From positions 128,001-192,000 of IMG/VR virus record IMGVR_UViG_3300028549_000507: 64,000 nt of DNA; one strand, 5' to 3'. Source of the stretch: a virus (lineage: Duplodnaviria; Caudoviricetes). Both the position numbers and the translations under genes were made by a program. Below are positions 8,565 to 58,015 of the stretch, piece by piece; the first letter of the stretch is position 1, and each line of letters begins with the position of its first letter. Below the pieces are notes generated by a model. That model had not been told where the DNA came from. It did no database searches and saw nothing but the letters and a program-made list of their open reading frames with translations.

Positions 8565-10352
8565 CTAAGCGCCTAGAAACTCATTAAGGTTCCAGATATC
8601 TTCAGGATCATAGTTGAATGTCTTATTATTTTTATCAAGAGAATCATAGAAATCTCTTGAAGTTATAATTTTGGTTTTATCAACTTTACTTTCATTAATA
8701 TGTTCAATTCTATCATAATTAACTTCTGTATCATTGAAATATCCATCTACTTTACATTTCTTATCGATTTCTCGAACAGTTTTGATAGCGATGAATTTCT
8801 TATAATTGAATGGAAACTTAATACTACTTTGAATCTCACTAAGAGGTTTGAACTTATGTTCACCAATAGCGATAGGCTTATACGCTTTATCAAAGAATGA
8901 TCTTAAGAAACTGTATTCATCTTTAATAAGTGCCATATTAGAATTGTAATATCCACCAGATCTATCGAGGATAAGTTTAGAAGGTCTAAATCCTTCTTTA
9001 AATGCCTCGATAACACAGAGTTCTTTAGGAGCATATACATTCAATACGTCTCCGTCAAAGTCTCCGTTAAATTCAACAAGTGAATTATGCTGGATAGTTA
9101 GAATATTATTTTTAGCATCTTTAAATACATCTGCTACTCTTAAGCACTGAATAGATCCTAGGTCGAAAGATGGGTTTCTGTTAACGATTACCCAGATTCC
9201 GTCATCTCGTCTATTATGTACAAGCTTATAAATAATATCAAAGATAAATGGATCAACCTCTTCAGAATACTTACATTTATTAACATACACTCGACATTCG
9301 GGCGTAGTCATATTTGCAAATATAGGGTTACCAATACCTTTAAGCATACAATTTATAATTTCAAGTTCAAACATTCCCATAAAACACTTATAAGACATTT
9401 TCACAGAATCAATGTCGTCTATATCTGTTTCGGAAACGATAACCATTCGACTACTATACCAAACTCGACCAGAAATAATACTACTTCTAATCAACTTTTC
9501 CTTACCAATTAATCTAGAGATAGTCAACTCATAGATCTGCATAAGGTTTCTTTGGATAGTACCGAGTATCTCCATAGCTTTAATACCCACACGATCTCCT
9601 TTTTTAACCAATCTAATATTTGCAATAATCGATATAAGTATCGCATTAATATTATGGAAATTGAAAGATACGTTTTTAGTGGAAATAAATCCTGGTCTAT
9701 GGGCTGGACTCATTACATAAATCTTACTTGAAAAAGTAATATTACGTCTATCCATAAGTATCTGATAAAGCTCTGGTTTGGTTGTTGACTGTTTGAAGTA
9801 TTCCAATACTTCAACATATCGACGTTCAAATTCCATCATACCAATCCCTTTAAAAGGATTCGCGACATCCTTTTTGAATGTGTCGGGATCTGAAGTATCA
9901 AGGTGAATAATCTCATCGATTATAAATGAACGTTTTCTCTTACCAATGTAAGCTTTAATCTTGTGATAAATTGATGGAATGATTATTTTATATTCCAACA
10001 AGTCAATCCACCCTCTACGGAGTAACTCAACGGAATATTTAATCTCAACTACAGAAGAACAATCAGGGCACGTCTGACCTTCGTTATATCTTCCTATAAG
10101 TTTCCCACAATCACAAGAGTATTCGATAATTTTATTATCAGTTTCAACTGGAATATTGAATCTTGGGTCAAATACACTATTGTTATTCGGCTTCATGACG
10201 TTCTCTCGGATAACATCCGAACTTTCCATCATGATCGGATTGCCCAATTCCAAGTCTTTTTGATATTCTCTTTCCCAGTCAGAATGATCCATTCTATAAA
10301 CTGTTCGCGCTATAGAATAGTCGCGTCTAGTTAATTTACTTAAGTCAATCAA
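8565..10352 (-). CDS. rpoC: Phage multisubunit RNA polymerase beta-prime subunit, N-terminal part including the catalytic loop
   Basis: Zn finger YSCDCG...TCPDC, SGRVWYSSRMVI, VIVNRNPSF and EFNGDFDGD motifs; TTG start with GGAGGG RBS. Virion versus non-virion enzyme cannot be fixed from sequence alone. Confidence 0.95.
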   Translation of the reverse strand: MIDLSKLTRRDYSIARTVYRMDHSDWEREYQKDLELGNPIMMESSDVIRENVMKPNNNSVFDPRFNIPVETDNKIIEYSCDCGKLIGRYNEGQTCPDCSSVVEIKYSVELLRRGWIDLLEYKIIIPSIYHKIKAYIGKRKRSFIIDEIIHLDTSDPDTFKKDVANPFKGIGMMEFERRYVEVLEYFKQSTTKPELYQILMDRRNITFSSKIYVMSPAHRPGFISTKNVSFNFHNINAILISIIANIRLVKKGDRVGIKAMEILGTIQRNLMQIYELTISRLIGKEKLIRSSIISGRVWYSSRMVIVSETDIDDIDSVKMSYKCFMGMFELEIINCMLKGIGNPIFANMTTPECRVYVNKCKYSEEVDPFIFDIIYKLVHNRRDDGIWVIVNRNPSFDLGSIQCLRVADVFKDAKNNILTIQHNSLVEFNGDFDGDVLNVYAPKELCVIEAFKEGFRPSKLILDRSGGYYNSNMALIKDEYSFLRSFFDKAYKPIAIGEHKFKPLSEIQSSIKFPFNYKKFIAIKTVREIDKKCKVDGYFNDTEVNYDRIEHINESKVDKTKIITSRDFYDSLDKNNKTFNYDPEDIWNLNEFLGA

Positions 10353-10370
10353 ACTGCCCTCCGTTTATAT

Positions 10371-10405
10371 AAAAAGAAAAAGAGGTTCCCATAAAGGGAA
10401 CCTCT
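10371..10405 (-). terminator. Intrinsic terminator between the FG/MG-tail gene and beta-prime
   Basis: AGAGGTTCCC/GGGAACCTCT stem followed on the minus strand by TTTTTCTTTTT. Confidence 0.8.
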
Positions 10406-10431
10406 CTAAAATAGTAATGGTATCTAGGAAC

Positions 10432-11157
10432 TTAGATAGAACCGAAGCCCATACCCATAGGCATTCCCATTCCCATACCCATTCCAGGCATTCCCATTCC
10501 CATACCCATGCCGAACTGCTGTGGAGCACCGAATGGACTGAATCCGCCCTGAGCCTGTTGTGGTTTAGCATTAGGATCTTTCTTAGCGAACGGACTAGTT
10601 GGAGCCTGCTGCTGACCGAATCCCATACCCATACCAGGCATTCCCATACCCATACCCGGCATTCCCATACCGAACTGAGCGCCACCCATACCCATAGGCA
10701 TTCCCATTCCCATTCCCATACCCATACCGAACTGAGCACCAAAACCCATACCCATCCCCATACCAGAATTCTGCATGATCTGCATTACACGTTCCTGAGG
10801 AAGTGCGCCAGAATAAATTGCAACCTGAGGGCTTGTACGTACGATAGCAGATTCAAAGATAGCGTTAAGCTCTTTGATTGTTGCTTCATCTTCAGTCACT
10901 TCGATACCCTGAGATTTGTAACCTGCAGCAAGGAAGGTTTTGATGTCTTCGATCATATAGTGACGACCATATGCACCCTGCTGGGAAGCTGGCTCATACT
11001 TGATACCCTTCTGTTGAAGTTGAAGGATGATCCAAGTAGGATCAATCAGACTATTGAACTTGCTTTCAGTAATGAGAGCAGAGAGTTCAGTTCCGACTTT
11101 TTTAGCAGAAGCATTGGTACCATTTGTTGCCGTACCGGCAGAAGTTTGCTGAGACAT
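10432..11157 (-). CDS. Hypothetical protein with Gly/Met/Phe/Gln low-complexity C-terminal tail
   Basis: 241 aa; GGAGG RBS; ~130-aa globular N-terminus then (GM)n repeats with 7 FG dipeptides; codon choice (ATC, TTC, CGT, TAC) typical of highly expressed genes. Confidence 0.85.
   Translation of the reverse strand: MSQQTSAGTATNGTNASAKKVGTELSALITESKFNSLIDPTWIILQLQQKGIKYEPASQQGAYGRHYMIEDIKTFLAAGYKSQGIEVTEDEATIKELNAIFESAIVRTSPQVAIYSGALPQERVMQIMQNSGMGMGMGFGAQFGMGMGMGMGMPMGMGGAQFGMGMPGMGMGMPGMGMGFGQQQAPTSPFAKKDPNAKPQQAQGGFSPFGAPQQFGMGMGMGMPGMGMGMGMPMGMGFGSI
10435..10765 (-). repeat. Coding GGTATG/GGAATG (Gly-Met) tandem repeat
   Basis: Imperfect hexanucleotide repeats visible as cccata/cccatt on the + strand. 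Confidence 0.9.
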
Positions 11158-11214
11158 AAACGTCCTCCAAAAGATTTGTTAAAAGAAACTAGAAAAGAGT
11201 TATTTTTCTTCCAT

Positions 11215-11226
11215 CAGTATTTTGTT
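11215..11226 (-). promoter_or_regulatory. Late-type promoter AACA-N6-TR
   Basis: Minus strand AACA AAATAC TG inside the leader of 10432..11157. Confidence 0.45.
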
Positions 11227-11292
11227 ATAATAACAATATTTTTTTATTTACTGATAGGAGATTGTGACATCTATAAACTAGAAGTCACAATC

Positions 11293-11308
11293 TTATATAT
11301 AATTGAAA
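11293..11308 (-). promoter_or_regulatory. Putative early-type promoter
   Basis: Minus strand TTTCAATTATATATAA; near-identical copies at 13968, 26284 and 62084. Confidence 0.6.
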
Positions 11309-11329
11309 TGTAGGTTTGAATAAATCAAA

Positions 11330-13888
11330 TTACATCATAGGTCCGAATCCGAAGCCCTGTTGTTGTTGATTAAACCCACCACCGAAACCACCACCGAAAC
11401 CACCAAACATCTGTTGCTGTTGAGATGCCATCTGTTGCTGTTGCATCATCTGTTGTTGCATCATTAACTGTTGATCAGGTGTAATGTATTGTCCATTGAA
11501 GAACGTTGGGGAATTAAATCCATTTTCCATGTAGTTATTCCCAACTACTTTACTCTGATTAGCTTCGATATACTGACGGATACTGCATGGTCCCGAGCAC
11601 GTAGCAACTACGGTCTGTAATGCTTTAAGTGCGAAAGCGACTTCAACCTTGGTTCGATAAACCTGAGGCTGTATCACAGTAATATATCCTTCTTTATCCA
11701 AGATAGACAATCTAACTCGACGATCGTCCAAGTTCATATTTCTATAATCTTTGAATTTATCTCCAAGGAACTTTGGAAGAGACTTCTTACCAACAGCACG
11801 TCTCCAGTCAATACGGTCACCATCCTTGTTGGTTTTCCGATATTCAGGAGATAGTACGAATGTAGGCCAGAAATCACCATTGTACTCAGGAGATCCTTCA
11901 AATGGTTCACCTTCCACATAGAACTGTGCAGTAGGTGCTACACCATTCTGTTCCGATACCGTTTTAATGATTTCATTGAACTGCGCCATGTCTTTATTGA
12001 CATTTACAGGACGAATACTATCATTCTTAAAGTAACGGGATACAGTAGGAGATGGAATCATAGTTCTATTGAATTCATAGTAGATATGAAGTTGTGATTG
12101 TGGGAATTCGGATTTAATATTGTGTACAAGTACACCAATAAGAGATCCAAGACCATCACGAACGAAAATATCCAATGATTCAATATAGTCTGTAATCGTA
12201 ACATTGATAGTTCCGTCCGCTTTAGGAGGAATCATAATGAAACGAATTGCCGCTGTCATATGCATAGACAGATCTTCATACCCGATACTCGCACCTTTGG
12301 CAAGAGCGATTCTGTTAGAAATTTCTTTACGATATTTCCATTCATTATCGAGATTTGGATTATCCCAACGAGAGATAAGAGCAATACTCTTCGTTGCAGC
12401 AACATCAACATTACCTGAACAGTTATCAAACGTAAATCTGTCGATTGTCGGTTTGTCTTTCTCACTTGTAGTGTAGAAATACTGATCACTGTCTTCAATA
12501 ATGGAAATAGGTTTAAAGATACCTATAACTTTGAGATTAAATGCAATCTGTTTAGAGATCGATTTAACAACACGGTTAAGGCGTTCGTCACGAATCATAT
12601 CGGAATAAACGATATACGTCATAACGTCATATTCACAATCACTCTGATCAAACGTATAACGTAGACGAGAATTTATCTCATTTTCCGCATGGTAAGATCC
12701 ACCAGGAATATCTGTATTGATGAAAATCACACGGATAGATCCTTCGAAATCAACTACAGGACACTCATGTGTTCTTTCATCGATATATAGTTTGTACTTA
12801 AGGTCACGAGCTCCGCGTTTCTTAAACAACTTAAGAATACGATCTACAACCTTTTTAGCATTTGAATCATCATAATCTTCGATAAGATCTGTAAATCTTG
12901 AACGAGAAACGATGTTATAGATATGCTCTTCACGTCCATCAATTTTGAATACATCGTCTTCAGAAGCTTCTTTGTTCTGATTGATCATATCCTCAATTAC
13001 AGCATCACGAGTAACCTTAACATCAGCGATTCCACTAAAATCATTAGCTTGAGATGAGAAGTCTTCATTCTTCTCTTCGACAACTGATTTAGGTTGAGAC
13101 GCCCAGAAATCTTCACCAAGATCTTCATCGAGATCATCGATAGGATTGGATGGAAGATCTTCATTAAGTTCTTCTTCTTCAATCTCATCATCGACAACAT
13201 CATTTTCATCAACTTCTACATCATCCCCGAATAATCCATCAAGATCATCTTCATCATCGAAGAATGAACCATACGCTTCACCGGCATTATCCGGAACTTC
13301 ATCTTGTTTAGCCATTTCCTCTTCCTCTGGTTCGGTGGGGGCTTCGTCCTCATCGATTTCAGGTTCATCAACTTGATCAGCAGCAATTTCATCCTCAATA
13401 ACTTCTTCTACAAGCGATTCTTGAGAAGTTTCTTCAGAATCATTCATCATAGATGCTCCAGGAGCCATTCCGAGATTGCTACGGAGTTCTTGAAGAGCTT
13501 CAACCAATTCCTCTTCAGACAGTCTACATTCAGAATCAGTTTCAGGTACGTAGAATCTGTACTGATCTAGTGGTTTGAGGTATGAGTTTTTGAACTTAGG
13601 AATATCAAATTCCATAAGATCTAACTCTTTGCGATAATCGGAGATACGTTTCTTAAGAGGAAGATTAGCCCCTTGTACGTATTTACATCCCCCACAAACG
13701 TGAACAGATGTTGGATCACCGTCCCGATTCTTGACGGTTTTAGTTCTCTTAAGCTCTTCAATAGAAGAGCTACTTCTATCCGCAAGACAGCACTTGCAGA
13801 TAACTTTACCTTCTTCAAGAAAGTACGGTTCAAACCCCACAATCGTGGAGAGCTCCGAATTCAGTTCTTGTAGGGTGTTGGATTCCAT
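11330..13888 (-). CDS. Multidomain protein: Zn ribbon, acidic tract, Hef-like nuclease-derived domain, Q/FG-rich tail
   Basis: CKCC...HVCGGC Cys cluster; D/E-rich region; C-terminal QQQMMQQQQ...FGGFGGGFG. Start moved to 13888 because the track's MEVS overlaps the GGAGG RBS. Confidence 0.75.
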   Translation of the reverse strand: MESNTLQELNSELSTIVGFEPYFLEEGKVICKCCLADRSSSSIEELKRTKTVKNRDGDPTSVHVCGGCKYVQGANLPLKKRISDYRKELDLMEFDIPKFKNSYLKPLDQYRFYVPETDSECRLSEEELVEALQELRSNLGMAPGASMMNDSEETSQESLVEEVIEDEIAADQVDEPEIDEDEAPTEPEEEEMAKQDEVPDNAGEAYGSFFDDEDDLDGLFGDDVEVDENDVVDDEIEEEELNEDLPSNPIDDLDEDLGEDFWASQPKSVVEEKNEDFSSQANDFSGIADVKVTRDAVIEDMINQNKEASEDDVFKIDGREEHIYNIVSRSRFTDLIEDYDDSNAKKVVDRILKLFKKRGARDLKYKLYIDERTHECPVVDFEGSIRVIFINTDIPGGSYHAENEINSRLRYTFDQSDCEYDVMTYIVYSDMIRDERLNRVVKSISKQIAFNLKVIGIFKPISIIEDSDQYFYTTSEKDKPTIDRFTFDNCSGNVDVAATKSIALISRWDNPNLDNEWKYRKEISNRIALAKGASIGYEDLSMHMTAAIRFIMIPPKADGTINVTITDYIESLDIFVRDGLGSLIGVLVHNIKSEFPQSQLHIYYEFNRTMIPSPTVSRYFKNDSIRPVNVNKDMAQFNEIIKTVSEQNGVAPTAQFYVEGEPFEGSPEYNGDFWPTFVLSPEYRKTNKDGDRIDWRRAVGKKSLPKFLGDKFKDYRNMNLDDRRVRLSILDKEGYITVIQPQVYRTKVEVAFALKALQTVVATCSGPCSIRQYIEANQSKVVGNNYMENGFNSPTFFNGQYITPDQQLMMQQQMMQQQQMASQQQQMFGGFGGGFGGGFNQQQQGFGFGPMM

Positions 13889-13967
13889 ACTAACCTCCAT
13901 TTAAAACACTTTTTTACACATTAATATATTGACAGTTTAATTAATAATTATTTTATAGATCATCACG

Positions 13968-14039: not shown

Positions 14040-15374
14040 TTAAACTTCTTTGGTATCTCCAACGAATTTACCATTACCGCCACGACCAAAATCTTTAGAA
14101 CTAGTACCAGAAGCATCAACTTTAATGTCGATAATTCCTTCTGAAACAGCTTTCTTAAGAGCTGACTCAACGATAGACAAGATATCACCTTGATCTTTAG
14201 TAATTTTGATAGACTCGTTATTGAGGGTGATAGTAAGATTAGATATTTCAGAAACTTCTTTAGTAAGTTTCACGATGATATCTCTAACGCCATTCAACGA
14301 TTTAAGACGTTCCGCACTGATACCGCCATCAGCAGTTCCTTCATTACTGTCAACAAATTTAGCAATACTCTCTGAAACTTTTTCAAGAGTATTGTAAATA
14401 GCTTTAACTTTAGTATTTTGATTTTTACCAGACTGTTTTACGAGGTTGGTGGTAATACTCTGAACAGTTCTAAGCTCAGTACTAAATCCAGAATTAGACC
14501 CTTGACGGAGGAAACGTTCACATTGTTTTGTAACTTTAACGTTAACTAGTTCAGGATCTTTTCTAACAACACTACACGCTTCAGCAAGAACAAGTGCATT
14601 TTCAAGATCACCAGAAACTTCATTATCAGCAATAGCACCAGTAATTTCTGTTTTAAGTTTAGAAATTGCTGTTTCTGTGCCATCTCCGACAGAATCCGCT
14701 TTAGAAGTCATGATACTATTAGCTACAGAACCAAGATTGTTAGAGATTTTTCCTCTATAATCTAGTGATGCATTTGCAGATTCTTGTGCTTTATTGATAG
14801 CTTTAGCATGTTCAACTACATTAGCAGAATTAGCAATACGTTTAGCTTCATCTTCAGCTTTTTTGGCCAATTTTGCATTTCTCGCTTCGATTCTATTTTT
14901 ATTGCGCTGAAGATTGTCGGCGTGAGCTGTACTTTTTCTCTTTGCAATAATCTCTTCAACAACTTTTTCAACTTTAGGCGCATCGCCTGATTTAAGCTGA
15001 GCAACCATCGCTGTTACAACTGTTGCCTTTGCATTGGTTTTTCCAAAAAGACCACCAATAATACCACCAATCCATTTAAAGAATCTGGTAAGCAGTTCAA
15101 TGATTTTGTTGAAAATTTTTTTAACGAATTCAACTACACCTTTGAAAACATTTCCAACACCCTCAGTAGAGGTTGTAAAATTTTCAAATCCATAGTTTTC
15201 CATAACAAAGAATGCACTTTCGATAGCCATCTGATCACGCACGATCATACCGTACGATTCAGCAGAATCAAGTCCATCAAGTTCTTCTTCTTCCTGAAGC
15301 CCGATTCCATCATATTCTTCTTCAAGACCCATGATAGCAGTTAATTCAGATTCAAATGAATTGTAAATACTCAT
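14040..15374 (-). CDS. Internal head (ejection-type) protein, phiKZ-like, with acidic propeptide
   Basis: Acidic N-terminus with several S/A/G-x-E sites (SAE, AIE, STE|G) followed by amphipathic helix VFKGVVEFVKKIFNKIIELLTRFFKWIG. Confidence 0.75.
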   Translation of the reverse strand: MSIYNSFESELTAIMGLEEEYDGIGLQEEEELDGLDSAESYGMIVRDQMAIESAFFVMENYGFENFTTSTEGVGNVFKGVVEFVKKIFNKIIELLTRFFKWIGGIIGGLFGKTNAKATVVTAMVAQLKSGDAPKVEKVVEEIIAKRKSTAHADNLQRNKNRIEARNAKLAKKAEDEAKRIANSANVVEHAKAINKAQESANASLDYRGKISNNLGSVANSIMTSKADSVGDGTETAISKLKTEITGAIADNEVSGDLENALVLAEACSVVRKDPELVNVKVTKQCERFLRQGSNSGFSTELRTVQSITTNLVKQSGKNQNTKVKAIYNTLEKVSESIAKFVDSNEGTADGGISAERLKSLNGVRDIIVKLTKEVSEISNLTITLNNESIKITKDQGDILSIVESALKKAVSEGIIDIKVDASGTSSKDFGRGGNGKFVGDTKEV

Positions 15375-15436: not shown

Positions 15437-16444
15437 TCAATTGTTGATAGACTTGATGATTTTCACCATCTCAGCATCTGATTGATTCTGAAGTTTTTCA
15501 CAATCAATAATCGTTCTACCGAGTTGGATGTTAGCTCCGGTGGCTTTTGACATAACTTTAAGCATATAATTAACTTCTCTGATAACAAACTGTGACGTTT
15601 CTTTGTCAGATGGATCCATTTTAGCAATGTCATATTCCAACTCATCCATCAATTTGAGAACAGATGTGATGATTTTTTCATTCTCACCAGAACTAAGAAG
15701 TTGTGAAGCACGTTTATTGCGTTCTTCGCGTTTGTTATCAATTCTAGACTGAGTATATGATTTTTTGAGAGTGCTAAATACATCTTTAGCTTTACCAAAG
15801 ATATTCTTTTTCTTAATCTCTCCAGATACCTGAGTTTCGATAACGGTTTCAAGCTCTGTACAATCCGTAGAAAGGTCAGGCTTCTCAGTCTTCCCTTTAC
15901 TTTTCACAAATCCAGAGAACTTTGGAAGTTTAGATTGAATTTTCTTAAGAACTTTACCAATTTCAGCTTTACTTGTAGCAATAATCCCGACAACTTCATC
16001 CGCTTTCGCAGGGTCAGCTACTTCTTTTTCAGGATCAATATTCTTACCAAGTTTAGCAGCAGCTTCCGATACAGTTTCTTTATCAGTCTCAGCAATAGTC
16101 TTACTATTCTGTCTCCACTCACCTTTTCCAAAGATCCAAAGGAAAGCATTCTTAATCCATCTGAAAAAACCACGAATGCCATCAAGGATTTTCTTTACTA
16201 CTTTTTTGATAAAGTTACCAATATCTTTAAGTAAATTACCTTCCATTGAGAAATTGTCAGATTCGATAGACAAAGTCATAAATGATAATTGTGCTTCAGT
16301 AGTAAGTTGGAGTTCGATAAGACTCATAGATTCTTCTATAATATTCAAAGAATTACCGTCCACATCCCCATCAAGAAATTCAGCATCTGGATCGTTTTCA
16401 ATCCCAAATATACTCGTGAGTGCGGCTTCGAGTGAATTGTCCAT
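15437..16444 (-). CDS. Internal head protein, paralog of 14040..15374
   Basis: Start at 16444 (GAGGAG RBS); acidic propeptide, SME|G site and the same amphipathic helix (IGNFIKKVVKKILDGIRGFFRWIK). Confidence 0.75.
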   Translation of the reverse strand: MDNSLEAALTSIFGIENDPDAEFLDGDVDGNSLNIIEESMSLIELQLTTEAQLSFMTLSIESDNFSMEGNLLKDIGNFIKKVVKKILDGIRGFFRWIKNAFLWIFGKGEWRQNSKTIAETDKETVSEAAAKLGKNIDPEKEVADPAKADEVVGIIATSKAEIGKVLKKIQSKLPKFSGFVKSKGKTEKPDLSTDCTELETVIETQVSGEIKKKNIFGKAKDVFSTLKKSYTQSRIDNKREERNKRASQLLSSGENEKIITSVLKLMDELEYDIAKMDPSDKETSQFVIREVNYMLKVMSKATGANIQLGRTIIDCEKLQNQSDAEMVKIIKSINN

Positions 16445-16480
16445 ATATGGCTCCTCGGCTATATATTGATTTATTATTAC

Positions 16481-16492
16481 CACTTATTTGTT
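16481..16492 (-). promoter_or_regulatory. Late-type promoter AACA-N6-TR
   Basis: Minus strand AACA AATAAG TG. Confidence 0.6.
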
Positions 16493-24726: not shown

Positions 24727-26244
24727 CTAATCATCTAACGATATGATCTTATTGAAACCAAGTGTATCTGGATCAATGTCACAGTTCGGTAGAATATTAA
24801 GAGTTACGCCAGGGCTATTTACGGAAGTACTGATTAGATCAGTTCTACCTGTCATAGAGTGGTGTAATCTTTTAAATTCTCTTGGAAGGAAACTCGATTT
24901 CCCACTACCTGGAGCTCCGGGTCCAATCTGAGTAGTCTTGGTTATAGCATGCATTAGACTCAAGTCATTCACATTACTTGTAAACTTACCAATATTTAAT
25001 CCAGATGTTTTACCATTGATGGCATCCAATATAATGGAAGGACTAGGTCTAAACACATTCTCTAAAGCTTTGATATCTTTGTAACTACCACGAATCTTAG
25101 TAAAACGATTAGCTTTATTTTTCAATTCACTCTTGAGAGGTTCGATAATATACTCGGATAATCTAAGTCGTTTGTTTACAAGAGATACATCTTTGGATAC
25201 GTTAGTTGAATAATTGAAAAACATCCAACGAACTACGTCATATGTACTATTGATATTTTCTTTACCAATAAACGATTTAATAATGTCACTAGTTCTAGGA
25301 TCTAGCGCACTCATAAATGTAAAACGTATGCCAGCACCTTTAGTTAAACAATTAGTTTTATCCAACATAAATCCGAGATTATAAATCCAAAAGTTTACGT
25401 CAGAAATATTTGTTTCATTAATAGTACGTTTATCCATAAGGAGTATTGTAGCAACAAGATCTCGAGTATGAACACTATTTTCAAAAATATATTTTCTAAC
25501 AAGGATATACAGAGATCCAAATTTGAAGAATAGATAATCATTGTATATAACATCATCCGGTTCCGGTAATTCTGTAATCACTCTGAGATATAATCCGAAG
25601 TATTTCATTGTGGTATGAAATCCAAAGGTTGCAAAATAGAATAATAGGAATGGTACATTCTTTAATTTAGAGTGAAGTTTTATAACGAATGAATTCACAT
25701 TATAAACAACTCCCTTTACATCGCGAATAGTACTCTTGTATCGTTGCATTTGAATAGGCTGGGTTGCAGTTCTGAGGATAACCTCATCATACTTACCCTT
25801 CGGATCAGTTCTATTAAATGTAACAGCGTCAACCATTTGGAATGGCACACAATATTTATTACCCTTAATAAGATAATTTACACCGTCATCGGAAATCAAT
25901 GGAATGTATATAAGCATATCTACTTTACTTATAGATCCATCATAACTTAGTTTAAATTTAAACTTATAAGCTCTAGAATAAGTTTCTTCAGTGGAATAAA
26001 TTTGACCATTGAATGATTTCTTAAATTTAGATTTAGCCTTATTCATTTCTCTAATTTGATTGAGATTATCGCTTGGTTCAAAGCCATCATATACGACATG
26101 ATCTCTAAGTTTCTTAGCAATTTCCTTACACAAATCGTCAACAAATTCGACCATATTGATATCCATATTTCGTCTAGCATTAACTAGATTCATATTAACC
26201 AACCGTTCTATGGTGTCGGAATAATATGCAACAAAATCGACCAT
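24727..26244 (-). CDS. rpoB: Phage RNA polymerase beta subunit, N-terminal part (size fits the non-virion enzyme)
   Basis: IPLISDDG..YLIKGNKY and GPGAPG...REFKRLHHSMTGRTDLISTS motifs match beta conserved regions; 505 aa. Confidence 0.85.
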   Translation of the reverse strand: MVDFVAYYSDTIERLVNMNLVNARRNMDINMVEFVDDLCKEIAKKLRDHVVYDGFEPSDNLNQIREMNKAKSKFKKSFNGQIYSTEETYSRAYKFKFKLSYDGSISKVDMLIYIPLISDDGVNYLIKGNKYCVPFQMVDAVTFNRTDPKGKYDEVILRTATQPIQMQRYKSTIRDVKGVVYNVNSFVIKLHSKLKNVPFLLFYFATFGFHTTMKYFGLYLRVITELPEPDDVIYNDYLFFKFGSLYILVRKYIFENSVHTRDLVATILLMDKRTINETNISDVNFWIYNLGFMLDKTNCLTKGAGIRFTFMSALDPRTSDIIKSFIGKENINSTYDVVRWMFFNYSTNVSKDVSLVNKRLRLSEYIIEPLKSELKNKANRFTKIRGSYKDIKALENVFRPSPSIILDAINGKTSGLNIGKFTSNVNDLSLMHAITKTTQIGPGAPGSGKSSFLPREFKRLHHSMTGRTDLISTSVNSPGVTLNILPNCDIDPDTLGFNKIISLDD

Positions 26245-27616: not shown

Positions 27617-30600
27617 TTAATATACCAATTTACCAGAATCAACTATAGGAATTCCTTCACAACTAACAAGAGGTTCATTCTCAGCACCACATAAAGTTAT
27701 AACCTCAGTAGATACTCTAGGAATTGCCTCTTTCTTAATTCTTTCGAACTCATTAACAAATGAACCACCACGTTTAACGGTTAGTAATTTGAAACTAGTA
27801 TTTTCAGAATATCCAACATCACCATAATCAATTCCAAAATATTTTATTTTGTTAAGTCGACCAGCTATAAGTTTTGTGAAGTCTCTATTTATCTCATAAG
27901 ATACAATATCTCCATCATAAGTTCCAACCAAAGCTTTAAGATTATCTTTATCAAAATCTCTAATAAAAGATAATATCTTACCATCGTCAGAATTCACAAC
28001 ACCCATAGCTTCGAATATAAACAAATCCAAATCTTTATCGTCAGAGAATGATATATTAGTCACAATTCCAAAGAACTTGTTAAATATACTAACACTATGC
28101 GTTTTTGAATGTACCAATTCACCATTAACTCCGCCATGAAATCTTAACAATTCAACTCCGGTAGAGTTCTTTAAAACCACATCATATCTTAAAGTATCCT
28201 TATTATATGATACGATAAGTGTTAAAAATTCAGTAGATCCTATCTCATAATTCCAACTAGGATTAATATCATAACTTTCACTAAAGTCTCCATTATTTAT
28301 ATCTGTTATCAAACTTAAATTTCCACTACTAGTTATTAGTGCATCTATTTTAAATCCATAGAACTCAATAAGTGTAGCCCTGAAATTTTTATGAATCATA
28401 GACATAGAAAATTCTAGTTTAAAAAATAATCTAGATGATGTTAGATCCATATCTATAATTCTTTTCAAATACTTACCAGACGTTTCATAATTGATATGAG
28501 TAATAGGTAACTCATTGTACGAATTGTGATGTCGATTATATCCATTCAATACTATAGGATGATCTATAGCCATAGGAACTGTTTCAGTTATATCTCTCTC
28601 AATTATAGAATGAGTTATAGCTAATTTACAATTAAATGGTATCCCACTTGTAGCATCGAAAACCGATATTACATGTAGATTTGTAATAGTGTCACCGATA
28701 TTGAGCGCATCATCAACAATACTACCAATATCTATAATCGCCGTTTTAGAATTTGTAAATTTATCATTATCAATTCCATAAAGAGAATAACTAGATAGAT
28801 CCACTTTGACTTCTTGAACCCCTCCGGAATTCAGTGAAGTTTCAATATAAAGATATAAGCTTCTCAAGAAATGACCAAGATCTTCACCATTATCATGCGG
28901 TTCAATATTCAAAACTAAATATCTGCAAAAGTTTATCTTATCATAATCCAGTTTCAATAAAGGTATACCCATATCAGTACCAATTGAATAAGAACTATTA
29001 TCCATAGATATATTTGAAACGTAATTGAATATACCAACTTCACCATCAACAGGGAATACATTTACGCTGGTTGATTCTATGTTCTCGCCAGGTAGCACTA
29101 ATCCGTTATAAGGAGTAACTCCGATCTTATCTCTAAAAATAAGACCTCTCTCACCCTCAACACAACCCGGAGCACTTTTCATATATCTGTGTAGGTTATT
29201 TATTCCAAATCGTTTAGAATATGCAACCTTAAGAGTGTTATGTATTCCTGAATTATTATGTATGGTTCCATCAAATATATTTAGAAACGAAATTCCACTA
29301 GATTCAATCATACCAACAAGAGGACCATAACTCTCACTATAGAAATAGCAAATATTATCAGAAGGAGTTTTATGATTAATTCCTGACTCAAAGAATAGTA
29401 TATCCTTATCAAGGGAAATCCCGCCAGCATCTACCATGAATTGAACTTTATTATTCAAATAAATAAATTTGGAAACAGTATTAACTACTAAACCATTTAC
29501 TTTATTAAAAATAACTCCAACTATAGAATTATGATTTTCGCAAACAAACCATTTATGAACCAGATGATATTGATCATCTCCGGGGGATGGTGTTCCAATA
29601 TTTAATGCAAAAGGAATCTTAACAATATCTCTATTATTAGTGACATACTTTTGACATATATGAGGAATTCCATCAATTCTAGCATACTCTATCAAACAAT
29701 CTTCTTTACCAAATCCTATAAAATTAGGATTACTAGCATTAAATTGTGAATTTGTAATTCTATCAATATAATTATCAGTTCTATGCTGTATAAAGTCGTC
29801 ATTTCTAGTTACGATGAATGACAATGTTGATCTATGACACTTATCATTTTCAAAAACAACACTACCACCAAAGTCGGTTATAGAATTATCTCCAGATATA
29901 CAACTTTCATTGATTATAACATTACTCTTTGAAACGGATCTTGAAACATTTGTATTATACAGTAATGGACTTATATCCAATTTTGTATTTTTCAAAATAT
30001 TAAGATCAAAATCAAGTGTATAAAAATTATCAAGATCATTATTAATTACAAGTATCAAATTGTTATTATAAGCACTCAATTTTATATTAACAATATTCTT
30101 GTAGTCTGGTATAACTAATGTACGGATAGGGGCAACATCGTTATCACACTGTTTGATTAGTATAGTAAATTCACTTAATAAGCTCGCGGTAAATACTTTA
30201 TTACCAAGTTTACAAAAGTCTCCAACAAAACCTTTTGCATCTTTACTCTGACAGAGTATCGTTTTACGACTAGCATCATTATTTTGAATAGCATACATAT
30301 TTGGAGTTTCAACACTCGAATAATTGGAACTTATTGTAAATTCGAATAGACTTCCGGCATAATAAAATATAGTTATACCATTACTGTTAGTCATTATCGT
30401 TTTTATACCCATAGTTCCTACAAGACTAGGAACGTGACTATTTCTCAACTCATAGTATGCACCAGTCGTCGAAATTAATGTTGGACTAATTGACACATAG
30501 TTGGCGCTAAGATTTAACTTGAGTCTTCTACACATTGTAGTCGGTTTATTCTTTTCCAAAACAATAAATGCTGTAGACGTTTGTTCAACAAACGATTCTA

Positions 30601-32014
30601 CTAATAGATAATTTCCATGAGAATAAACTCTATCGGAAATAAGATCAATATTAATAACCTTCAATGTATCAGTAGATGAATCATATTCAAACAATCCGCG
30701 TTTTCGAGATGTCAATGTCGAATATTCAATATCATGATAACCGCTACATGAGAAGTAAACTTTATTTCCATCAGATGCAACATTTGATGCTACGGTATTT
30801 ATATCATTCTGGAAGTCCTGTACATCGTATCTATCAAATAGATCTTTAAAAATATTATAATTTCCTTTATAGATATTTTTAACAATATACCCTTTATTTT
30901 TTAGAGATATATAGAGGAAACCATCATCTCCATAAATGGCATCATGAATAAATGTTCCGGATATAAATCCGGAAATCCTATCATTGATAGTAGTTAGGAT
31001 CCCACCTTTTTCAATAAGATATATAGTCCCATTATTATTTACAATAACTACATTTTCACCATCATTACTGAAATTTATTTTGCAAGTTTCTTCATCTATG
31101 TATGGGATTACTGTTGGGTTTTTGATATCATAAAGATTATCGCTATCATATATTATACAAATATCATTAGTTGATGGATTTTTAATATTTAAAACTACCT
31201 TAAACCCTCCGCCAGGTTTAAATGATAATCCTATAACATTGTCGACAATCAAGTTATCTCTACATCCACTATAGTATACTAGAAAGTTTGAATCAGAAAT
31301 ATTAACATTCATATTTCTACTCATTATTCCACTTCTAAAACCTTCACGCACAAGATTAAATAGTACACTTTTTTCAAAACCAACACTCATAAGAGAATCC
31401 GACAATTGTATACCATTCATATACATGAAATAAATAGCACTTACAGTTATAATATTTCCATTATCTATATACAATGCAATTAGTTTTAAAGATTTATGTA
31501 GTTCATCTCTAACAAAGTATCTATAAGAATCACTCTTATAACTACTAGATGATGAGTCAGTTTTATATAATCTATATTCATTTACAATATAATTATAACC
31601 GTGTCTATTATAAGTTTGATTGCTAGAATAATCTACCAAGATAGAGTCTCCGAGTAAACAATAAAATTCATAACCATCAAAACAAACACAATTCTTTTTA
31701 ACAAATTGCCCAAGAGATGGGAGTGTTAATGTCGTTTTATCTCCATCATACATTCTAACTATATCCAAATAATTATCATGCTGGTAGAAAATTCTAAGAA
31801 TACCGTCATCAGATTTAACAAATCCAATAACTATTCCGTCAACCATATCAAATGATTTTGATACAGAAACATCTCCATCAGTATAATTTACTAACCCATT
31901 TTCATAAATAATACTACTATATGAATCAGTAATTATAGTATCCAATATTTTAACATCATTACTTATATGAGAATCTAAGAGTTGAGTGTAATCTACAATC
32001 TTCTTAATATCCAT
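27617..32014 (-). CDS. Large beta-rich virion (baseplate/tail) protein, possible beta-propellers and C-terminal LamG-like domain
   Basis: 1465 aa, rich in N/D/S/I/Y short strands; late-type promoter; AAGGAG RBS. Confidence 0.6.
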   Translation of the reverse strand: MDIKKIVDYTQLLDSHISNDVKILDTIITDSYSSIIYENGLVNYTDGDVSVSKSFDMVDGIVIGFVKSDDGILRIFYQHDNYLDIVRMYDGDKTTLTLPSLGQFVKKNCVCFDGYEFYCLLGDSILVDYSSNQTYNRHGYNYIVNEYRLYKTDSSSSSYKSDSYRYFVRDELHKSLKLIALYIDNGNIITVSAIYFMYMNGIQLSDSLMSVGFEKSVLFNLVREGFRSGIMSRNMNVNISDSNFLVYYSGCRDNLIVDNVIGLSFKPGGGFKVVLNIKNPSTNDICIIYDSDNLYDIKNPTVIPYIDEETCKINFSNDGENVVIVNNNGTIYLIEKGGILTTINDRISGFISGTFIHDAIYGDDGFLYISLKNKGYIVKNIYKGNYNIFKDLFDRYDVQDFQNDINTVASNVASDGNKVYFSCSGYHDIEYSTLTSRKRGLFEYDSSTDTLKVINIDLISDRVYSHGNYLLVESFVEQTSTAFIVLEKNKPTTMCRRLKLNLSANYVSISPTLISTTGAYYELRNSHVPSLVGTMGIKTIMTNSNGITIFYYAGSLFEFTISSNYSSVETPNMYAIQNNDASRKTILCQSKDAKGFVGDFCKLGNKVFTASLLSEFTILIKQCDNDVAPIRTLVIPDYKNIVNIKLSAYNNNLILVINNDLDNFYTLDFDLNILKNTKLDISPLLYNTNVSRSVSKSNVIINESCISGDNSITDFGGSVVFENDKCHRSTLSFIVTRNDDFIQHRTDNYIDRITNSQFNASNPNFIGFGKEDCLIEYARIDGIPHICQKYVTNNRDIVKIPFALNIGTPSPGDDQYHLVHKWFVCENHNSIVGVIFNKVNGLVVNTVSKFIYLNNKVQFMVDAGGISLDKDILFFESGINHKTPSDNICYFYSESYGPLVGMIESSGISFLNIFDGTIHNNSGIHNTLKVAYSKRFGINNLHRYMKSAPGCVEGERGLIFRDKIGVTPYNGLVLPGENIESTSVNVFPVDGEVGIFNYVSNISMDNSSYSIGTDMGIPLLKLDYDKINFCRYLVLNIEPHDNGEDLGHFLRSLYLYIETSLNSGGVQEVKVDLSSYSLYGIDNDKFTNSKTAIIDIGSIVDDALNIGDTITNLHVISVFDATSGIPFNCKLAITHSIIERDITETVPMAIDHPIVLNGYNRHHNSYNELPITHINYETSGKYLKRIIDMDLTSSRLFFKLEFSMSMIHKNFRATLIEFYGFKIDALITSSGNLSLITDINNGDFSESYDINPSWNYEIGSTEFLTLIVSYNKDTLRYDVVLKNSTGVELLRFHGGVNGELVHSKTHSVSIFNKFFGIVTNISFSDDKDLDLFIFEAMGVVNSDDGKILSFIRDFDKDNLKALVGTYDGDIVSYEINRDFTKLIAGRLNKIKYFGIDYGDVGYSENTSFKLLTVKRGGSFVNEFERIKKEAIPRVSTEVITLCGAENEPLVSCEGIPIVDSGKLVY

Positions 32015-35000: not shown

Positions 35001-35650
35001 GTATCATATTGGTAAATGATATCAAAATCATTACTATCAACTAATTTTATAGTATTGGAATTTGTCAAATATACAAAGATTGATCTAGTTTCAGTTATAT
35101 CGATATTTTTAACTAAGGTCAATCCTGTGCCACCGATCCAACTAATCATTCCATCAGGAGTTGAAACGTGTCCGGATCTAGTTACATATAGATTTGACAA
35201 TTGTGATACATTTGCATTTTTCGTAGTAGAAGGAATCGTGCTATGGCTAAGTAAAAATTTCAAAGTCTTAAATAGATCTGTAGTTTTGGCTAGTACTAGT
35301 CCCGTCGGATCAATGTATTCTACAAAAAATGATTCTTTTCCAAATCTCTTAAAACTTATAACAAATACTCCTCGTAGTACATCGATTACCCAATTTTTAC
35401 CAAAATCAAATGATATCGATAGCATTTTAGTAGGTTCATCCAAATGTACAAACAACCCATCATCAAATTCACAATACAATTTATCAGATACAGTGGCAGT
35501 TTCCTCTGAAATTTCCGAAAGAATCCCAGATCTATTCTGACGATTATTGGTGTATTGGAATGGGCTCTTCCCAGAATTACAATTGAAATCCTTGAGGATA
35601 TTTGTAGTGTATGGTATATCTTTATATGATCTAATCACCGTAAACCTCAC
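32099..35650 (-). CDS. Large beta-propeller-like virion protein
   Basis: 1183 aa; SFDFGKNW resembles a BNR/Asp-box; overlaps the upstream gene by 20 nt. Confidence 0.6.
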   Translation of the reverse strand: MRFTVIRSYKDIPYTTNILKDFNCNSGKSPFQYTNNRQNRSGILSEISEETATVSDKLYCEFDDGLFVHLDEPTKMLSISFDFGKNWVIDVLRGVFVISFKRFGKESFFVEYIDPTGLVLAKTTDLFKTLKFLLSHSTIPSTTKNANVSQLSNLYVTRSGHVSTPDGMISWIGGTGLTLVKNIDITETRSIFVYLTNSNTIKLVDSNDFDIIYQYDTVAQPFENLSVVYYASKNLILIYNRDRVNRKVVWFNVLTRTFGLLNESLFAFGDSTTKYELFYIDNKLFVMYVESDGRLYYRQIYIDDIGGVGVVIDKDFVTNPNSVAVQNLTLLNSPEYNVLDQHIILSLYDDSHVSLSFGKVYSIISDNHIYNISFTDRLFFDTILFGYNYKTTINVKDYLEMNVNKTCVTLNTSSLDQYGVGYVLSTVLSGNDVENKSMSTIITGNYSQKHYKLRSDCISPIYDNLVSFTSYFYDVENDVELFAMNSDDNFKIITINNTSDIINTRVIGIKLNPSAYFIVNDRHYVISFDDMDDLTTNVYSKNSYSNIYDITESDNIFKVTTIPLENSFNEYILTQSADENLPFNRSKKVDVSIINGVVYINSDAGVYMYNSDMKFMGKLEIPNLKGIVTRVDYLNGSYFITVRRSDIRKSIGLKVRDSFSNVMTDDHVYYGKNFDSLKRIDLDTEYIADIKCDVFRNKVYIVHVSNKFEIYNFDGTDLVKFGEMLSEGDLRAENPGMFVSNSLGIIHEVSSAPNSAVTHLKSSDNSITTLSVLKSKLDVGDYTLYVFLHNKKYILLKESKSGYFEMIQNSNFLRFKYVNVDNSSDNVRLELVDCGKFGKFIVAMSNYYTECVNLTPIVSISQYTNMRFNINQDPKVVMVRADSGPSIIYKDNFDIKIFTLGKDDDMILPVQSHYNLNDIIFPKESISWFDDGYAIPYLDRVVQFKWDDSINRVAISNTINSVYGIDFLGYITGINIVQLKQYCGVLYGTFSISAGGADVRHNITGVLKKSKSDTFDVYVIKDTLRVSLGGVGPYGYFLDIIDDTLCVCDSNNNTFTINTTLVNPSSMSVNNVFRMFCDSDTVDNSSKRVISSGRTMPDKSIFIRNFFNDILLKVDLGGEYSTIIDEATGRKCIQLKSSTPTQMDRVALGDYDIIYSVKFSKFIDDMLSSFGQEGIAYTHIYDR

Positions 35651-37295
35651 TATGACTTAAAATTTTATACTTAATTTCATCTATAGTTGTATCACCTATA
35701 GAACCATTCTCATTGATAAATACCCGACAATCGGAAGAATTTTTCAATCTAAATTTAGAATTAATTCCATCAATAAAATCGATCTCAATGACATCGTCAT
35801 TTTGAGATATAATATTATAAATTGTCTTATTAAATGTATCTATAGTCATTACTGCTGGCCGATCTCTAACTACAACGAGATCTAATACGACACCTCTATC
35901 TGACAATTTTCTATAGCTATCAGTTTCACCATCTAATTCATTTTTCATGATGATTTCAAATTCAACACCATATCCAATATCATCTCCAACAAGATCTAAT
36001 CGTTTCCAAGTATTAAAATTACTAGGCAAAACATGATTGCTACTATCTATAATATTTTTAACAATAGAATCATCAACCAATGCAATTTTCATAGCATTCG
36101 GGAGAGTATTGTATATATTATTACCAATAAGATACACTGTTCCAACAATATTCACTGGGATATTTTTTAAAGATATTGTCAATTTTGAAGATGAATCCAT
36201 ACTGAATGACCCGATGTATACACGATCATCCGTACCTATAAACAATATCTTATCTTCATAAAAGTTGATACTTTTACAATTCATAGGAAGAGTTCTTGTA
36301 TCAATATATACTGATTGGGTGGTATTTTTATCGACAATTATAGTTGTTATAGAATTATACTTAACAGTATGGGTATAGAAAATTCCATCTTTATAACTAA
36401 ATTTGATATATTCATATGATACTCTAGATGCCAGAAGTATCAATTGACCTGATGGTTTTAAGTTATATACTCCGGTAGGATCACTATATACAATATTTTC
36501 TAAATCTTCAGTGATTTGTAAAATTTCTTTGTTTATAAATGATGAGTAATTGATATTGACGAGCTCGGCGTTCATTGTAGTTTTAGTAATCTTAACAATA
36601 TTAGGAATAACGTCCGAACCAGTCAGTGTACGCATAATACTTACATAGATAAAATCATTATCTATATATACAACTCTAGATCCAGCGATTACAAACGATC
36701 CAGAAAGCCCTAATGATGATGGTGTTATATATTTAAATTTTACAATAGAATCTATATTATGAATGATAAGTTGATTATCTTTAACATATATACTAAATGT
36801 TCCATCCTGTCCAATATGGCTATCTAACATTGTTGGAGTTGGAACTTTTGTAGAATAATCTTCTCCGGAAATTATATCATATATAGAATTAATTATAGAA
36901 TCTAATCTATATTTTATAACCGATGGATTAGAAATCACGAGAGCAGTAGAAGTATTCGATCTAATTGTTTCATAACTCGTTTTCAGGAAACTATACATAA
37001 ATTTTATATATGAATCAATTTTAACCAAGTGTGCAGTATATTCCGAATTATAAATATCCAAGGCGGTATTTACGCCATTTAACTTCGTATTAATCTCAGT
37101 AATAATAGAATCATTACTAATCTCATTTATCATTTCATAAACCGAATTACATCTAGAAAGTATTATATCACTAGTATACTTACCACTAATGGGGTCTATA
37201 GTTTCAAGTAAATCTTTCAACTGGTCAAATACTACTCGGGATAGGTATACCATATCCATCAGAGCTCTAACTTTTAGATTTATAGTTGTATCCAT
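35631..37295 (-). CDS. Putative virion protein (helical N-terminus, beta-propeller-like middle)
   Basis: 554 aa; AAGGAG RBS; late-type promoter at 37322. Confidence 0.6.
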   Translation of the reverse strand: MDTTINLKVRALMDMVYLSRVVFDQLKDLLETIDPISGKYTSDIILSRCNSVYEMINEISNDSIITEINTKLNGVNTALDIYNSEYTAHLVKIDSYIKFMYSFLKTSYETIRSNTSTALVISNPSVIKYRLDSIINSIYDIISGEDYSTKVPTPTMLDSHIGQDGTFSIYVKDNQLIIHNIDSIVKFKYITPSSLGLSGSFVIAGSRVVYIDNDFIYVSIMRTLTGSDVIPNIVKITKTTMNAELVNINYSSFINKEILQITEDLENIVYSDPTGVYNLKPSGQLILLASRVSYEYIKFSYKDGIFYTHTVKYNSITTIIVDKNTTQSVYIDTRTLPMNCKSINFYEDKILFIGTDDRVYIGSFSMDSSSKLTISLKNIPVNIVGTVYLIGNNIYNTLPNAMKIALVDDSIVKNIIDSSNHVLPSNFNTWKRLDLVGDDIGYGVEFEIIMKNELDGETDSYRKLSDRGVVLDLVVVRDRPAVMTIDTFNKTIYNIISQNDDVIEIDFIDGINSKFRLKNSSDCRVFINENGSIGDTTIDEIKYKILSHSEVYGD

Positions 37296-37377: not shown

Positions 37378-38124
37378 TTATCTGTCATGAATTTCCATAG
37401 ATACACTATTTTCAAATAGAACTCTTTTAGCAAGTTTAAATCTATACCTGTTTTTTATATCATAAGTAGAATAAAAAAATGTATCAAATTTAGGACACCA
37501 TTTTTTGAAACTAGGAGAGCTATGAACTATCTTAACATTTGATTTGTTAGATTTAATTTTAAACATTATGATTCTATTGACAAATATATCTAGATCATCA
37601 TTATCTATAAACATTTCATACATCATCTTGCCGCCATAAACGACAATATTGATGTCGGAAGGCTCATTTATAGGGGCTCTAGATGTCAACTTTAATGCTT
37701 CTAAAAGATCACAAGCATCACTTATAAATGTAATACGATGTCCACTCTTTAAAATATGACTATATATTCTATTTTCTACAAATATACCTTCATTAATGTC
37801 CAACTGCATCTTGGTTATTACTTTAGGAATATCCGTTACAAATACTATCATGTTTCTATTTTCAAATGGAGTATATCCATTTGAGTAGAATGTATTATGT
37901 CCGCAAATTATAATAGAATCCTTAGGAGTCTTATTTTTATTCGCATTAAAATTTCTAGACTTAGTTTCAAGTGAAAATGTAGATTCTGGAGACATTATTC
38001 TCCACGGGAATGCTCCTTCAAACCCGATACCCATAGTATCCTCATCAACGGTTACAACCATTGTTGCTTTATATTTAGTAACTGGGTTATATTTCTTTTT
38101 ACCACAAAATATAGAAAACATCAT
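37378..38124 (-). CDS. folA: Dihydrofolate reductase-like protein (divergent)
   Basis: MGIGFEGAFPW, IIICGHNTF...PFENRNMIVF and IVVYGGKMMY match DHFR motifs, with insertions. Confidence 0.75.
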   Translation of the reverse strand: MMFSIFCGKKKYNPVTKYKATMVVTVDEDTMGIGFEGAFPWRIMSPESTFSLETKSRNFNANKNKTPKDSIIICGHNTFYSNGYTPFENRNMIVFVTDIPKVITKMQLDINEGIFVENRIYSHILKSGHRITFISDACDLLEALKLTSRAPINEPSDINIVVYGGKMMYEMFIDNDDLDIFVNRIIMFKIKSNKSNVKIVHSSPSFKKWCPKFDTFFYSTYDIKNRYRFKLAKRVLFENSVSMEIHDR

Positions 38125-57987: not shown

Positions 57988-58015
57988 AATTACCTCAAAC
58001 ATTTATATTTATTAT

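Follow-up and report, generated by a model that had tools for sequence, protein, structure and literature searches.

A candidate condensate scaffold with a Gly-Met-rich tail encoded ahead of an RNA polymerase beta' gene in a mat-associated jumbo phage

The question raised by this locus is what a phage would do with an apparently abundant protein that ends in a long, nearly uncharged tail of glycine and methionine and whose gene stands directly ahead of an RNA polymerase (RNAP) gene. The protein, here called P0001, is encoded in a 64,000-nt stretch (hereafter the window; positions 128,001 to 192,000 of the Caudoviricetes record IMGVR_UViG_3300028549_000507), which is part of a 200,251-bp IMG/VR viral contig that is ~72% complete and has ~31% G+C. 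The phage occurs in microbial-mat metagenomes; among the public runs listed as holding it, none was an RNA run, and none was listed for the P0001 gene by itself. A sequence-only reading of the window had proposed that P0001 could scaffold a condensate-type compartment or selective barrier in a shell-less jumbo phage. The answer we favour, with slightly less than even confidence and on the strength of sequence comparisons and structure models, is that P0001 is a dimeric scaffold whose cohesive tails would build a condensate or gel together with P0002, the product of the next gene upstream.

The open reading frame (ORF) at 10432-11157 on the − strand, 241 aa in length, was confirmed as a real gene by its translation, ~18 homologues, a Shine-Dalgarno sequence and a terminator. 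A longer + strand ORF (10417-11313), rich in His/Thr/Ser repeats, was rejected as a gene, being an unsupported mirror-frame artefact of the repeat. The P0001 gene has its own leader of 172 nt (145-225 nt across the family loci), an equally strong ribosome site was found at all homologous loci, and the terminator, which lies 24 nt past the stop codon, has an equivalent hairpin and T run 3' of the family gene in L002, L004, L005 and L007. The high-expression codon bias that had been claimed for P0001 was borne out, with the highest NNC/(NNC+NNT) ratio among 162 contig ORFs (0.60 vs. a median of 0.24). Specifically, the N-terminal domain alone uses ATC for 10/13 Ile codons (genome 0.21) and CGT for 3/3 Arg codons, and leaves ATA, TTA, TTG and AGA unused. 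Judged from ribosome site, terminator and codon usage, a very abundant protein is implied. The features of the gene are as follows.

10432-11157, − strand: P0001 coding sequence including the stop codon (ORF and translation; ~18 homologues; tail codon comparison with P0004, below)
11163-11168, − strand: GGAGGA ribosome-binding site, 5 nt before the P0001 ATG (read from the sequence)
10369-10407, − strand: intrinsic terminator between the P0001 and beta' genes, with a hairpin at 10379-10407 (12-bp stem, 6 GC pairs, 5-nt loop) and a T run (z −2.65)

The tail had been described as ~110 aa of Gly-Met with seven Phe-Gly (FG) dipeptides, and this description proved accurate. It covers residues 129-241 (113 aa; G 31%, M 23%, Q 9%, P 9%, F 7%), contains exactly seven FG beside ~27 Met, and is built on a repeat unit of GM or PGMGMGM. 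Charge is limited to 3 Lys and 1 Asp, all of which lie in a linker between two Gly-Met blocks.

10615-10764, − strand: first Gly-Met/FG low-complexity block, residues 132-181 (sequence, composition, period-6/period-21 DNA arrays)
10516-10614, − strand: Q/P-rich linker, residues 182-214, with the only charged tail residues (SPFAKKDPNAK; family alignment)
10435-10515, − strand: second Gly-Met block, residues 215-241, ending G-S-I (sequence and composition; the family usually ends G-G-I/L/V)

A word-indexed search returned one near-identical relative only, P0004, which lies on a 28-kb contig with the same gene order and is 92-96% identical. Over 111 aligned tail codons, P0001 and P0004 differ by 14 synonymous and 0 non-synonymous changes, vs. 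10 and 10 in the head. Because of this pattern, we conclude that the tail is translated in this frame and constrained at least as strongly as the head; by this codon comparison, it is under purifying selection.

More distant relatives were recovered by an exhaustive HMMER search with the head, which gave 12 further proteins (217-267 aa, 28-43% identity), and by a profile search, which added five family members and brought the total to ~18 metagenomic homologues at 28-48% identity overall. All full-length members share one design, that is, an MSQ start, a leader of ~20 residues rich in S/T/A/K, a helical domain of ~110 residues and a two-block low-complexity tail. The blocks are split by a linker of the form P-x-W-x-K-K...QQQ...GFNP, of which the P0001 linker is the counterpart, and most members end in G-G-I/L/V. 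The absence of the tail in close homologues, which would have spoken against a scaffold, was not found; every one of the ~18 full-length homologues has it. Tails are almost charge-free family-wide, and the sticky residue differs by lineage. It is Met in most members, Tyr/Gln in P0011 (resembling FUS or Sup35-type repeats), Phe/Asn/Gly in P0013 and Met/Lys in P0015, while P0014 carries a Phe/Gln/Gly tail of the GFGGGFGQQ type with 16 FG and is the only FG-dominated orthologue. Since the sticker changes by lineage while low charge and Gly/Gln/Pro spacers are kept, it is composition that appears to be selected, not a particular sequence. P0001 thus has the sequence properties expected under a sticker-and-spacer description, being long and nearly uncharged, with Gly/Gln/Pro/Asn spacers, Met/Phe/Tyr stickers and a conserved composition.

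Apart from these homologues, a borderline head-only relative was observed at L024:422-820 (+) (E 9e-4); it is tail-less and ends SDDI, and its 1.9-kb contig shows another gene context. No match was obtained by megablast of the 6-kb region, and a scan of IMG/VR with the family alignment gave zero confirmed loci.

The folded part of P0001 was modelled with AlphaFold2 using a 19-sequence alignment, which superseded a poor single-sequence fold (predicted local distance difference test, pLDDT, 49). The head came out all-helical with a mean pLDDT of 80, a core of ~90 and a predicted template-modelling score of 0.72, and it is slightly acidic.

11095-11157, − strand: residues 1-21, conserved MSQ start (M1, S2 and Q3 nearly invariant) followed by a disordered S/T/A/K-rich leader (pLDDT ~40)
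10762-11094, − strand: residues 22-132, all-helical domain, predicted symmetric homodimer (AlphaFold2 and dimer model)

When two copies of the head were modelled together, a symmetric dimer was predicted whose interface is very large. The score was 0.85 (best control 0.02), runs agreed in at least 87% of contacts, and the partner pLDDT was at least 81; in the benchmark, the mark used was reached by 20/30 proteins solved as one-chain pairs and by 1/23 solved as single chains. The model supports pairing of the head as a homodimer, and an oligomerising folded domain of this kind, as modelled, would provide the multivalency that a sticker-and-spacer scaffold calls for.

A match of the N-terminal domain to a known enzyme or chaperone would have explained the tail in another way. 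None was found in Pfam, PHROGs, PDB sequences, Foldseek or the ESM Atlas. Specifically, Pfam (E up to 1) and PHROGs searches of the whole of P0001 gave no family, Pfam on all 19 family heads gave scattered hits of E 0.011 or weaker, and no PDB sequence was matched by the family profile below E 0.3. Foldseek of the head against PDB, BFVD, AFDB clusters and Swiss-Prot returned nothing convincing, nor did the Atlas shape search, and the Atlas feature search had no usable match. On these models, residues 22-132 are a new helical domain. An exhaustive VIA-align scan placed CARD/DED six-helix bundles in almost all of its top 13 rows (Z 5.9-4.7, root-mean-square deviation ~3-4 Å over 71-95 residues), although helical bundles with Z below ~13 may, by the tool's guidance, share a common arrangement only, which makes the likeness a lead. 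Death-fold domains are six-helix bundles and many form filaments, whereas the P0001 head is predicted as a symmetric dimer and not a helical filament, Foldseek lends no support (E above 1), and Z lies under the tool's trust level. A reading as a single-stranded DNA-binding protein was also rejected, as the head is all-helical without an oligonucleotide/oligosaccharide-binding fold and the protein ends in G-S-I, lacking an acidic tip.

The second half of the argument comes from the gene upstream. P0002 was found to end in a tail of the same kind.

11330-13900, − strand: P0002, 856 aa, with a zinc-ribbon-like head, an acidic disordered stretch, a conserved 480-aa core and a Q/M/FG tail (no Pfam, PDB or chimallin similarity)
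11333-11527, − strand: P0002 tail, 65 uncharged residues of Q/M/F/G (its composition follows that of the P0001-family tail across 8 loci)

Besides the window copy, 17 relatives of P0002 were identified, and all full-length ones end in an uncharged Q/M/Y/F/N tail. None of the family has a Pfam domain, and the family profile found nothing among PDB sequences. By these searches, the P0001 and P0002 families are two new protein families, absent from Pfam and PHROGs and carried by no cultured phage among those searched. When 8 loci were compared, the P0002-family tail matched the adjacent P0001-family tail in flavour at each locus. Five are Met-Met pairs; in L005 both tails are Tyr/Gln/Asn with 0% Met in each, in L021 both are Phe/Tyr/Gln, in L022 both are Asn/Phe/Gly, and in L023 both are Met/Lys, each ending MMMNK. 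Met in the protein body stays at 1.4-3.2% across loci. When the shared low-complexity background was removed, 191 of 40,320 re-pairings matched as well as the observed pairing. Nothing else in the analysis points as strongly to a joint role of the two tails as this co-variation, and P0002 is likely a tail-tail partner of P0001. A third protein of this genome with such an uncharged low-complexity region was observed outside the window (G000:C1:16363-16998, −); it has 211 aa, of which the N-terminal 55 residues are rich in G/M/N/F (MFGSGGSLFGGMN...).

In the mechanism that we propose, the helical head (residues 22-132) would pair into a symmetric dimer in which each chain bears a nearly uncharged tail of ~110 residues, and each tail would offer two Gly-rich blocks dense in Met/Phe stickers and parted by a short Lys/Gln linker. 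A dimer would therefore carry four cohesive blocks, which is enough valency for a network. Such valency, combined with the high concentration implied by the expression signals, would in turn make the protein demix inside infected cells as a condensate or gel. P0002, with a shorter tail of matching flavour, would be drawn into the same phase, as the co-variation suggests, and the 211-aa protein with its G/M/N/F-rich end may also enter it. The contents of the phase might be DNA, RNAP or assembly intermediates. The position of the gene, ahead of the beta' gene with a terminator in between, fits expression before and alongside the phage transcription machinery.

Several points weigh against this proposal. 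The dimer is a model, built from an alignment assembled in this analysis. The co-variation test ignores phylogeny and so overstates independence, and it covers 8 loci, of which 5 are of the Met type. Methionine at alternate residues is far denser than in known condensate scaffolds, and material properties cannot be extrapolated from them. Adjacency to beta' belongs to a long stretch of collinear genes and is thus little evidence of a functional link. The tail-less L024 relative (E 9e-4) may mean that the head has a function of its own. Finally, the family was carried by no cultured phage among those searched, either by tblastn of P0001 against 50,697 GenBank phages or with the family hidden Markov model in phiR1-37, BpSp, Madawaska and 201phi2-1.

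The nearest analogues in composition help to place the tail. The comparison with FG nucleoporins invoked by the sequence-only reading turned out to be overstated, as the tail is mainly (GM)n and comes closest in composition to Met-rich low-complexity domains and to the Sis1 G/F-G/M region. No FG-nucleoporin family was matched by Pfam in the whole of P0001 (E up to 1), and FG, GLFG or FxFG is not its dominant sticker. Like the cohesive GLFG/FG nucleoporin domains, P0001 combines near charge-free Gly/Gln-rich disorder, Phe stickers and an oligomerising anchor, but its seven FG are a minority beside Met, and it has neither a pore scaffold nor known transport receptors; the likeness is compositional only. 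Met-rich low-complexity domains of Pbp1/ataxin-2, TDP-43 and Pab1 drive or tune phase separation (PMC8394241). They share with P0001 an uncharged low-complexity region in which Met is a main cohesive residue and which is attached to folded self-associating modules. In contrast, there is no sequence relation, Met reaches 23-31% here and often occupies every second residue, and P0001 is phage-encoded and lacks an RNA-binding domain; phase behaviour in its case is a proposal. A functional parallel is offered by Gp27 of phage SPO1, in which a self-associating N-terminal part and a disordered region drive condensates that are proposed to concentrate transcription machinery (PMC13401047). Both are small phage proteins with a self-associating helical N-terminal part (as modelled for P0001) and a disordered region, whereas the disorder of Gp27 is Lys-rich and DNA-binding and is joined by an RNAP-binding C-domain (PMC13401047), and the P0001 tail is uncharged and terminal with 3 Lys in 113 residues. 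No homology links the two.

Whether P0001 could stand in for the phage nucleus is the larger form of the question. To our knowledge, the chimallin shell is the one known way in which phages build an intracellular compartment, and a phage condensate driver has been described only very recently, in the single case of SPO1 Gp27. Chimallin (ChmA; phiKZ gp54, 201phi2-1 gp105) resembles P0001 in being encoded near the gene for the N-terminal half of a non-virion beta', in being highly expressed and in having disordered Q/G-rich termini, but it has ~630 aa and builds a lattice, and no sequence similarity to it was found in P0001, P0002 or elsewhere in the contig. P0001 had been said to occupy the chimallin-like position, which did not hold. 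In 201phi2-1, gp106 (188 aa) stands between chimallin gp105, which comes first, and beta' gp107 (L019, 201phi2-1 53606-57839). P0001 thus sits at the gp106 slot, and the chimallin slot, one gene further upstream, is held by P0002. The companion claim that P0001 does not resemble chimallin stood, since its family profile found nothing relevant among PDB sequences and a 241-aa protein with an all-helical head compares poorly with one of ~630 aa. The PDB sequences include chimallin entries. P0002 and chimallin were aligned by hhalign with a probability of 0.3%, gp106 is unrelated to the P0001 family, and 201phi2-1 gp105 gave no hit in the 200-kb contig, which is 72% complete, and chimallins diverge fast. 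As an observation in its own right, the 201phi2-1 layout of large protein, small protein and beta' is mirrored here without detectable homology in the first two genes.

The promoters of the phage bear on the same question. The contig has two clear classes of promoter-like motif. Class 1 is AACA-N6-TG, extended AAACAT.TTAATG, with ~33 sites before large, structural-type genes, and matches the AR9 late-promoter consensus 5'-AACA-(6N)-T(A/G) (PMC7598289). Class 2, TATATTTAATAGTG, also written TATAT(T)TAATAGTG, has ~13 sites before small ORFs with long leaders and looks like an early class. Examples of the classes were found upstream of window 27617-32014, 35631-37295 and 56155-58002. The two classes suggest an AR9-like programme with two polymerases, and the AR9-type late promoters point to a phage nearer the AR9/phiR1-37 group, which a review describes as encoding no pseudo-nucleus (PMC7598289). 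The "shell-less" part of the earlier proposal is no more than suggested by these promoters and by the missing chimallin hit, within the limits of an incomplete contig. At P0001 itself, the claim of both early-type and late-type motifs was only weakly supported, in that only degenerate copies are present. Their position weight matrix (PWM) scores are to be set against at least 11 for the sites defining the late class and at least 15 for the early-like class.

11283-11308, − strand: TTTCAATTATATATA...GTGA motif, a degenerate form of the TATAT-TAATAGTG (early-like) class (PWM 4.2)
11211-11231, − strand: weak, minimal AACA-N6-TG match (AR9-type late consensus; PWM 3.0)

The 15-nt TTTCAATTATATATA element is common to the P0001 leader and the leader of the upstream gene (11330-13900).

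A bolder version of our proposal, which we consider fairly improbable, would have the abundant dimer form a Met/Phe hydrogel-like replication/transcription compartment in AR9-like jumbo phages without detectable chimallin, with the matching short tails of P0002 and the 211-aa protein acting as address tags. If true, the phage nucleus would have an alternative made of a protein phase, with a selectivity encoded by low-complexity composition, and a Met-type phase might be oxidation-sensitive.

Among other explanations, a virion or assembly role survives best, and we hold it to be rather unlikely. P0001 might act in virion structure or morphogenesis as a head scaffold, a decoration protein, an inner-body protein or one that is ejected, with a flexible tail to fill space or to make contact with DNA or capsid. 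Virion genes are frequent in the surrounding block, where the structural gene of phrog_21032 follows beta' and two to three genes upstream start with a capsid-targeting-like motif. P0001 also equals putative structural genes in the strength of its expression signals, and a head maturation protease (phrog_3014, G000:C1:859-1728) is encoded in the genome. Yet P0001 has neither the S-x-E / G-[LIF]-E propeptide motif seen in its neighbours nor the canonical AAACAT.TTAATG late promoter found before large structural genes, it shares its leader motif with P0002, which does not look structural, an uncharged tail would not neutralise DNA, and no PHROG structural family was matched. The neighbouring motif (SFESELTAIMGLE, SLEAALTSIFGIE) was observed at the start of the consecutive genes at window 14040-15374 (−) and 15437-16483 (−), and more weakly of 11330-13900 (−), and looks like a capsid-targeting or prohead-protease signal. 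The copy in P0002 is probably no cleavage site because the final Glu is not kept in P0002 homologues.

The second explanation, which we judge unlikely, is a chaperone-like holdase or decoy, in which the tail binds unfolded clients or engages and titrates host Hsp70-type chaperones. The C-terminal tail of GroEL is a (GGM)n repeat. Sis1, a yeast class B J-protein, has a glycine/methionine-rich region (PMC2289895), and P0001, itself very abundant by its expression signals, resembles both in composition. Specifically, Gly-Met/Gly-Phe repeats with Pro follow a small helical domain, a likeness that is compositional only. P0001 differs in lacking a J-domain, an HPD motif, C-terminal client-binding domains and a chaperonin or other chaperone fold, and its tail is bipartite and much longer, ~8 times the length of the GroEL tail. 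No DnaJ Pfam hit was found in 19 family members (E up to 1), no J-domain occurred among the structural matches, and no Cpn60 Pfam hit was found for P0001, whose head has 135 aa. Moreover, P0011 and P0013 swap Met for Tyr/Gln/Asn and would be poor mimics of hydrophobic clients.

The third explanation makes P0001 an accessory factor of the phage non-virion RNAP, that is, a tether, hub or specificity factor whose dimer binds the polymerase and whose tail concentrates it. The statement that P0001 lies directly upstream of a beta' gene was verified.

8565-10352, − strand: RNAP beta' N-terminal half, 595 aa, past the terminator (PF00623 E 1.5e-9, phrog_2987 E 8e-47; nearest known relatives 26-28% identity)

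The best tblastn matches of this half were the beta'/RpoC N-terminal genes of phiR1-37, BpSp, AR9/PBS1 and Staphylococcus jumbo phages, of which the last are annotated as non-virion. The position just upstream of the beta' N-half is kept in 7/7 loci that reach that far, and SPO1 Gp27 is a functional precedent. We nevertheless regard the explanation as quite unlikely. By its strong terminator and very different codon bias, P0001 should far outnumber the polymerase, no nucleic-acid-binding or sigma-like features were seen and the head is slightly acidic. Adjacency is weak evidence where the whole ~15-kb block is collinear; every sufficiently long locus has the order 840-930-aa protein, P0001 family, 595-aa beta' N-half, 327-335-aa virion structural protein (phrog_21032; 335 aa in the window, after beta') and ~1030-aa protein.

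That the tail is a functionless, slippage-driven repeat expansion on a small helical protein is hardly credible, as the DNA arrays of period 6 and period 21/27 and the unit-sized indels between close relatives are outweighed by 14 synonymous vs. 0 non-synonymous changes in 111 tail codons, by retention of tail, two-block layout and linker motif at 28-48% head identity, and by mixed Gly codons, which damp slippage.

For the preferred reading of P0001 as a dimeric scaffold that condenses with P0002, the scaffold type of folded oligomeriser plus low-complexity tail is already known. What is new is that a jumbo-phage clade has such a scaffold-type protein as one of its core genes, with top-ranking expression signals, that its Gly-Met density is extreme, and that natural sticker swaps are matched in the neighbour. 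If the tails mediate co-assembly, they would amount to a sticker code for recruitment in bacteria that arose naturally and can be tuned by evolution. The family would then be an unusually clean sticker-and-spacer test system, since nature already supplies M, F, Y and N versions of one protein. Should there be no compartment, the analysis still defines two new protein families and a new helical domain that is predicted to be dimeric.

Further features were observed in and around the intergenic region upstream of P0001.

11259-11293, − strand: inverted repeat AGATTGTGAC...GTCACAATCT (read from the sequence)

This repeat could be the terminator of the upstream gene or an operator, and hairpins occur at the equivalent place in L005 and L007. 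An A-CTCTTTTC element at window 11195-11205, ~42 nt 5' of the P0001 ATG, recurs in the leaders of several homologues (30-45% protein identity) and might mark the 5' end of a transcript or enhance translation; a CTCTTTTC-like element was not found as a genome-wide motif. On the other side of the family gene, L003 has a spacer of ~850 nt before beta' (L003:8769-9622) with two tiny ORFs and a G+C-rich, structured-looking stretch, which could be an RNA element or an insertion. Elsewhere in the window, a polymerase gene (phrog_2943) was found at 24727-26244 (−), a dihydrofolate reductase-like gene (phrog_316) at 37378-38124 (−) and a thymidylate-kinase-like gene (phrog_761) at 50642-51379 (+). The phrog_316 and phrog_761 genes are relevant to which base the phage DNA carries, thymine, uracil or a modified one.

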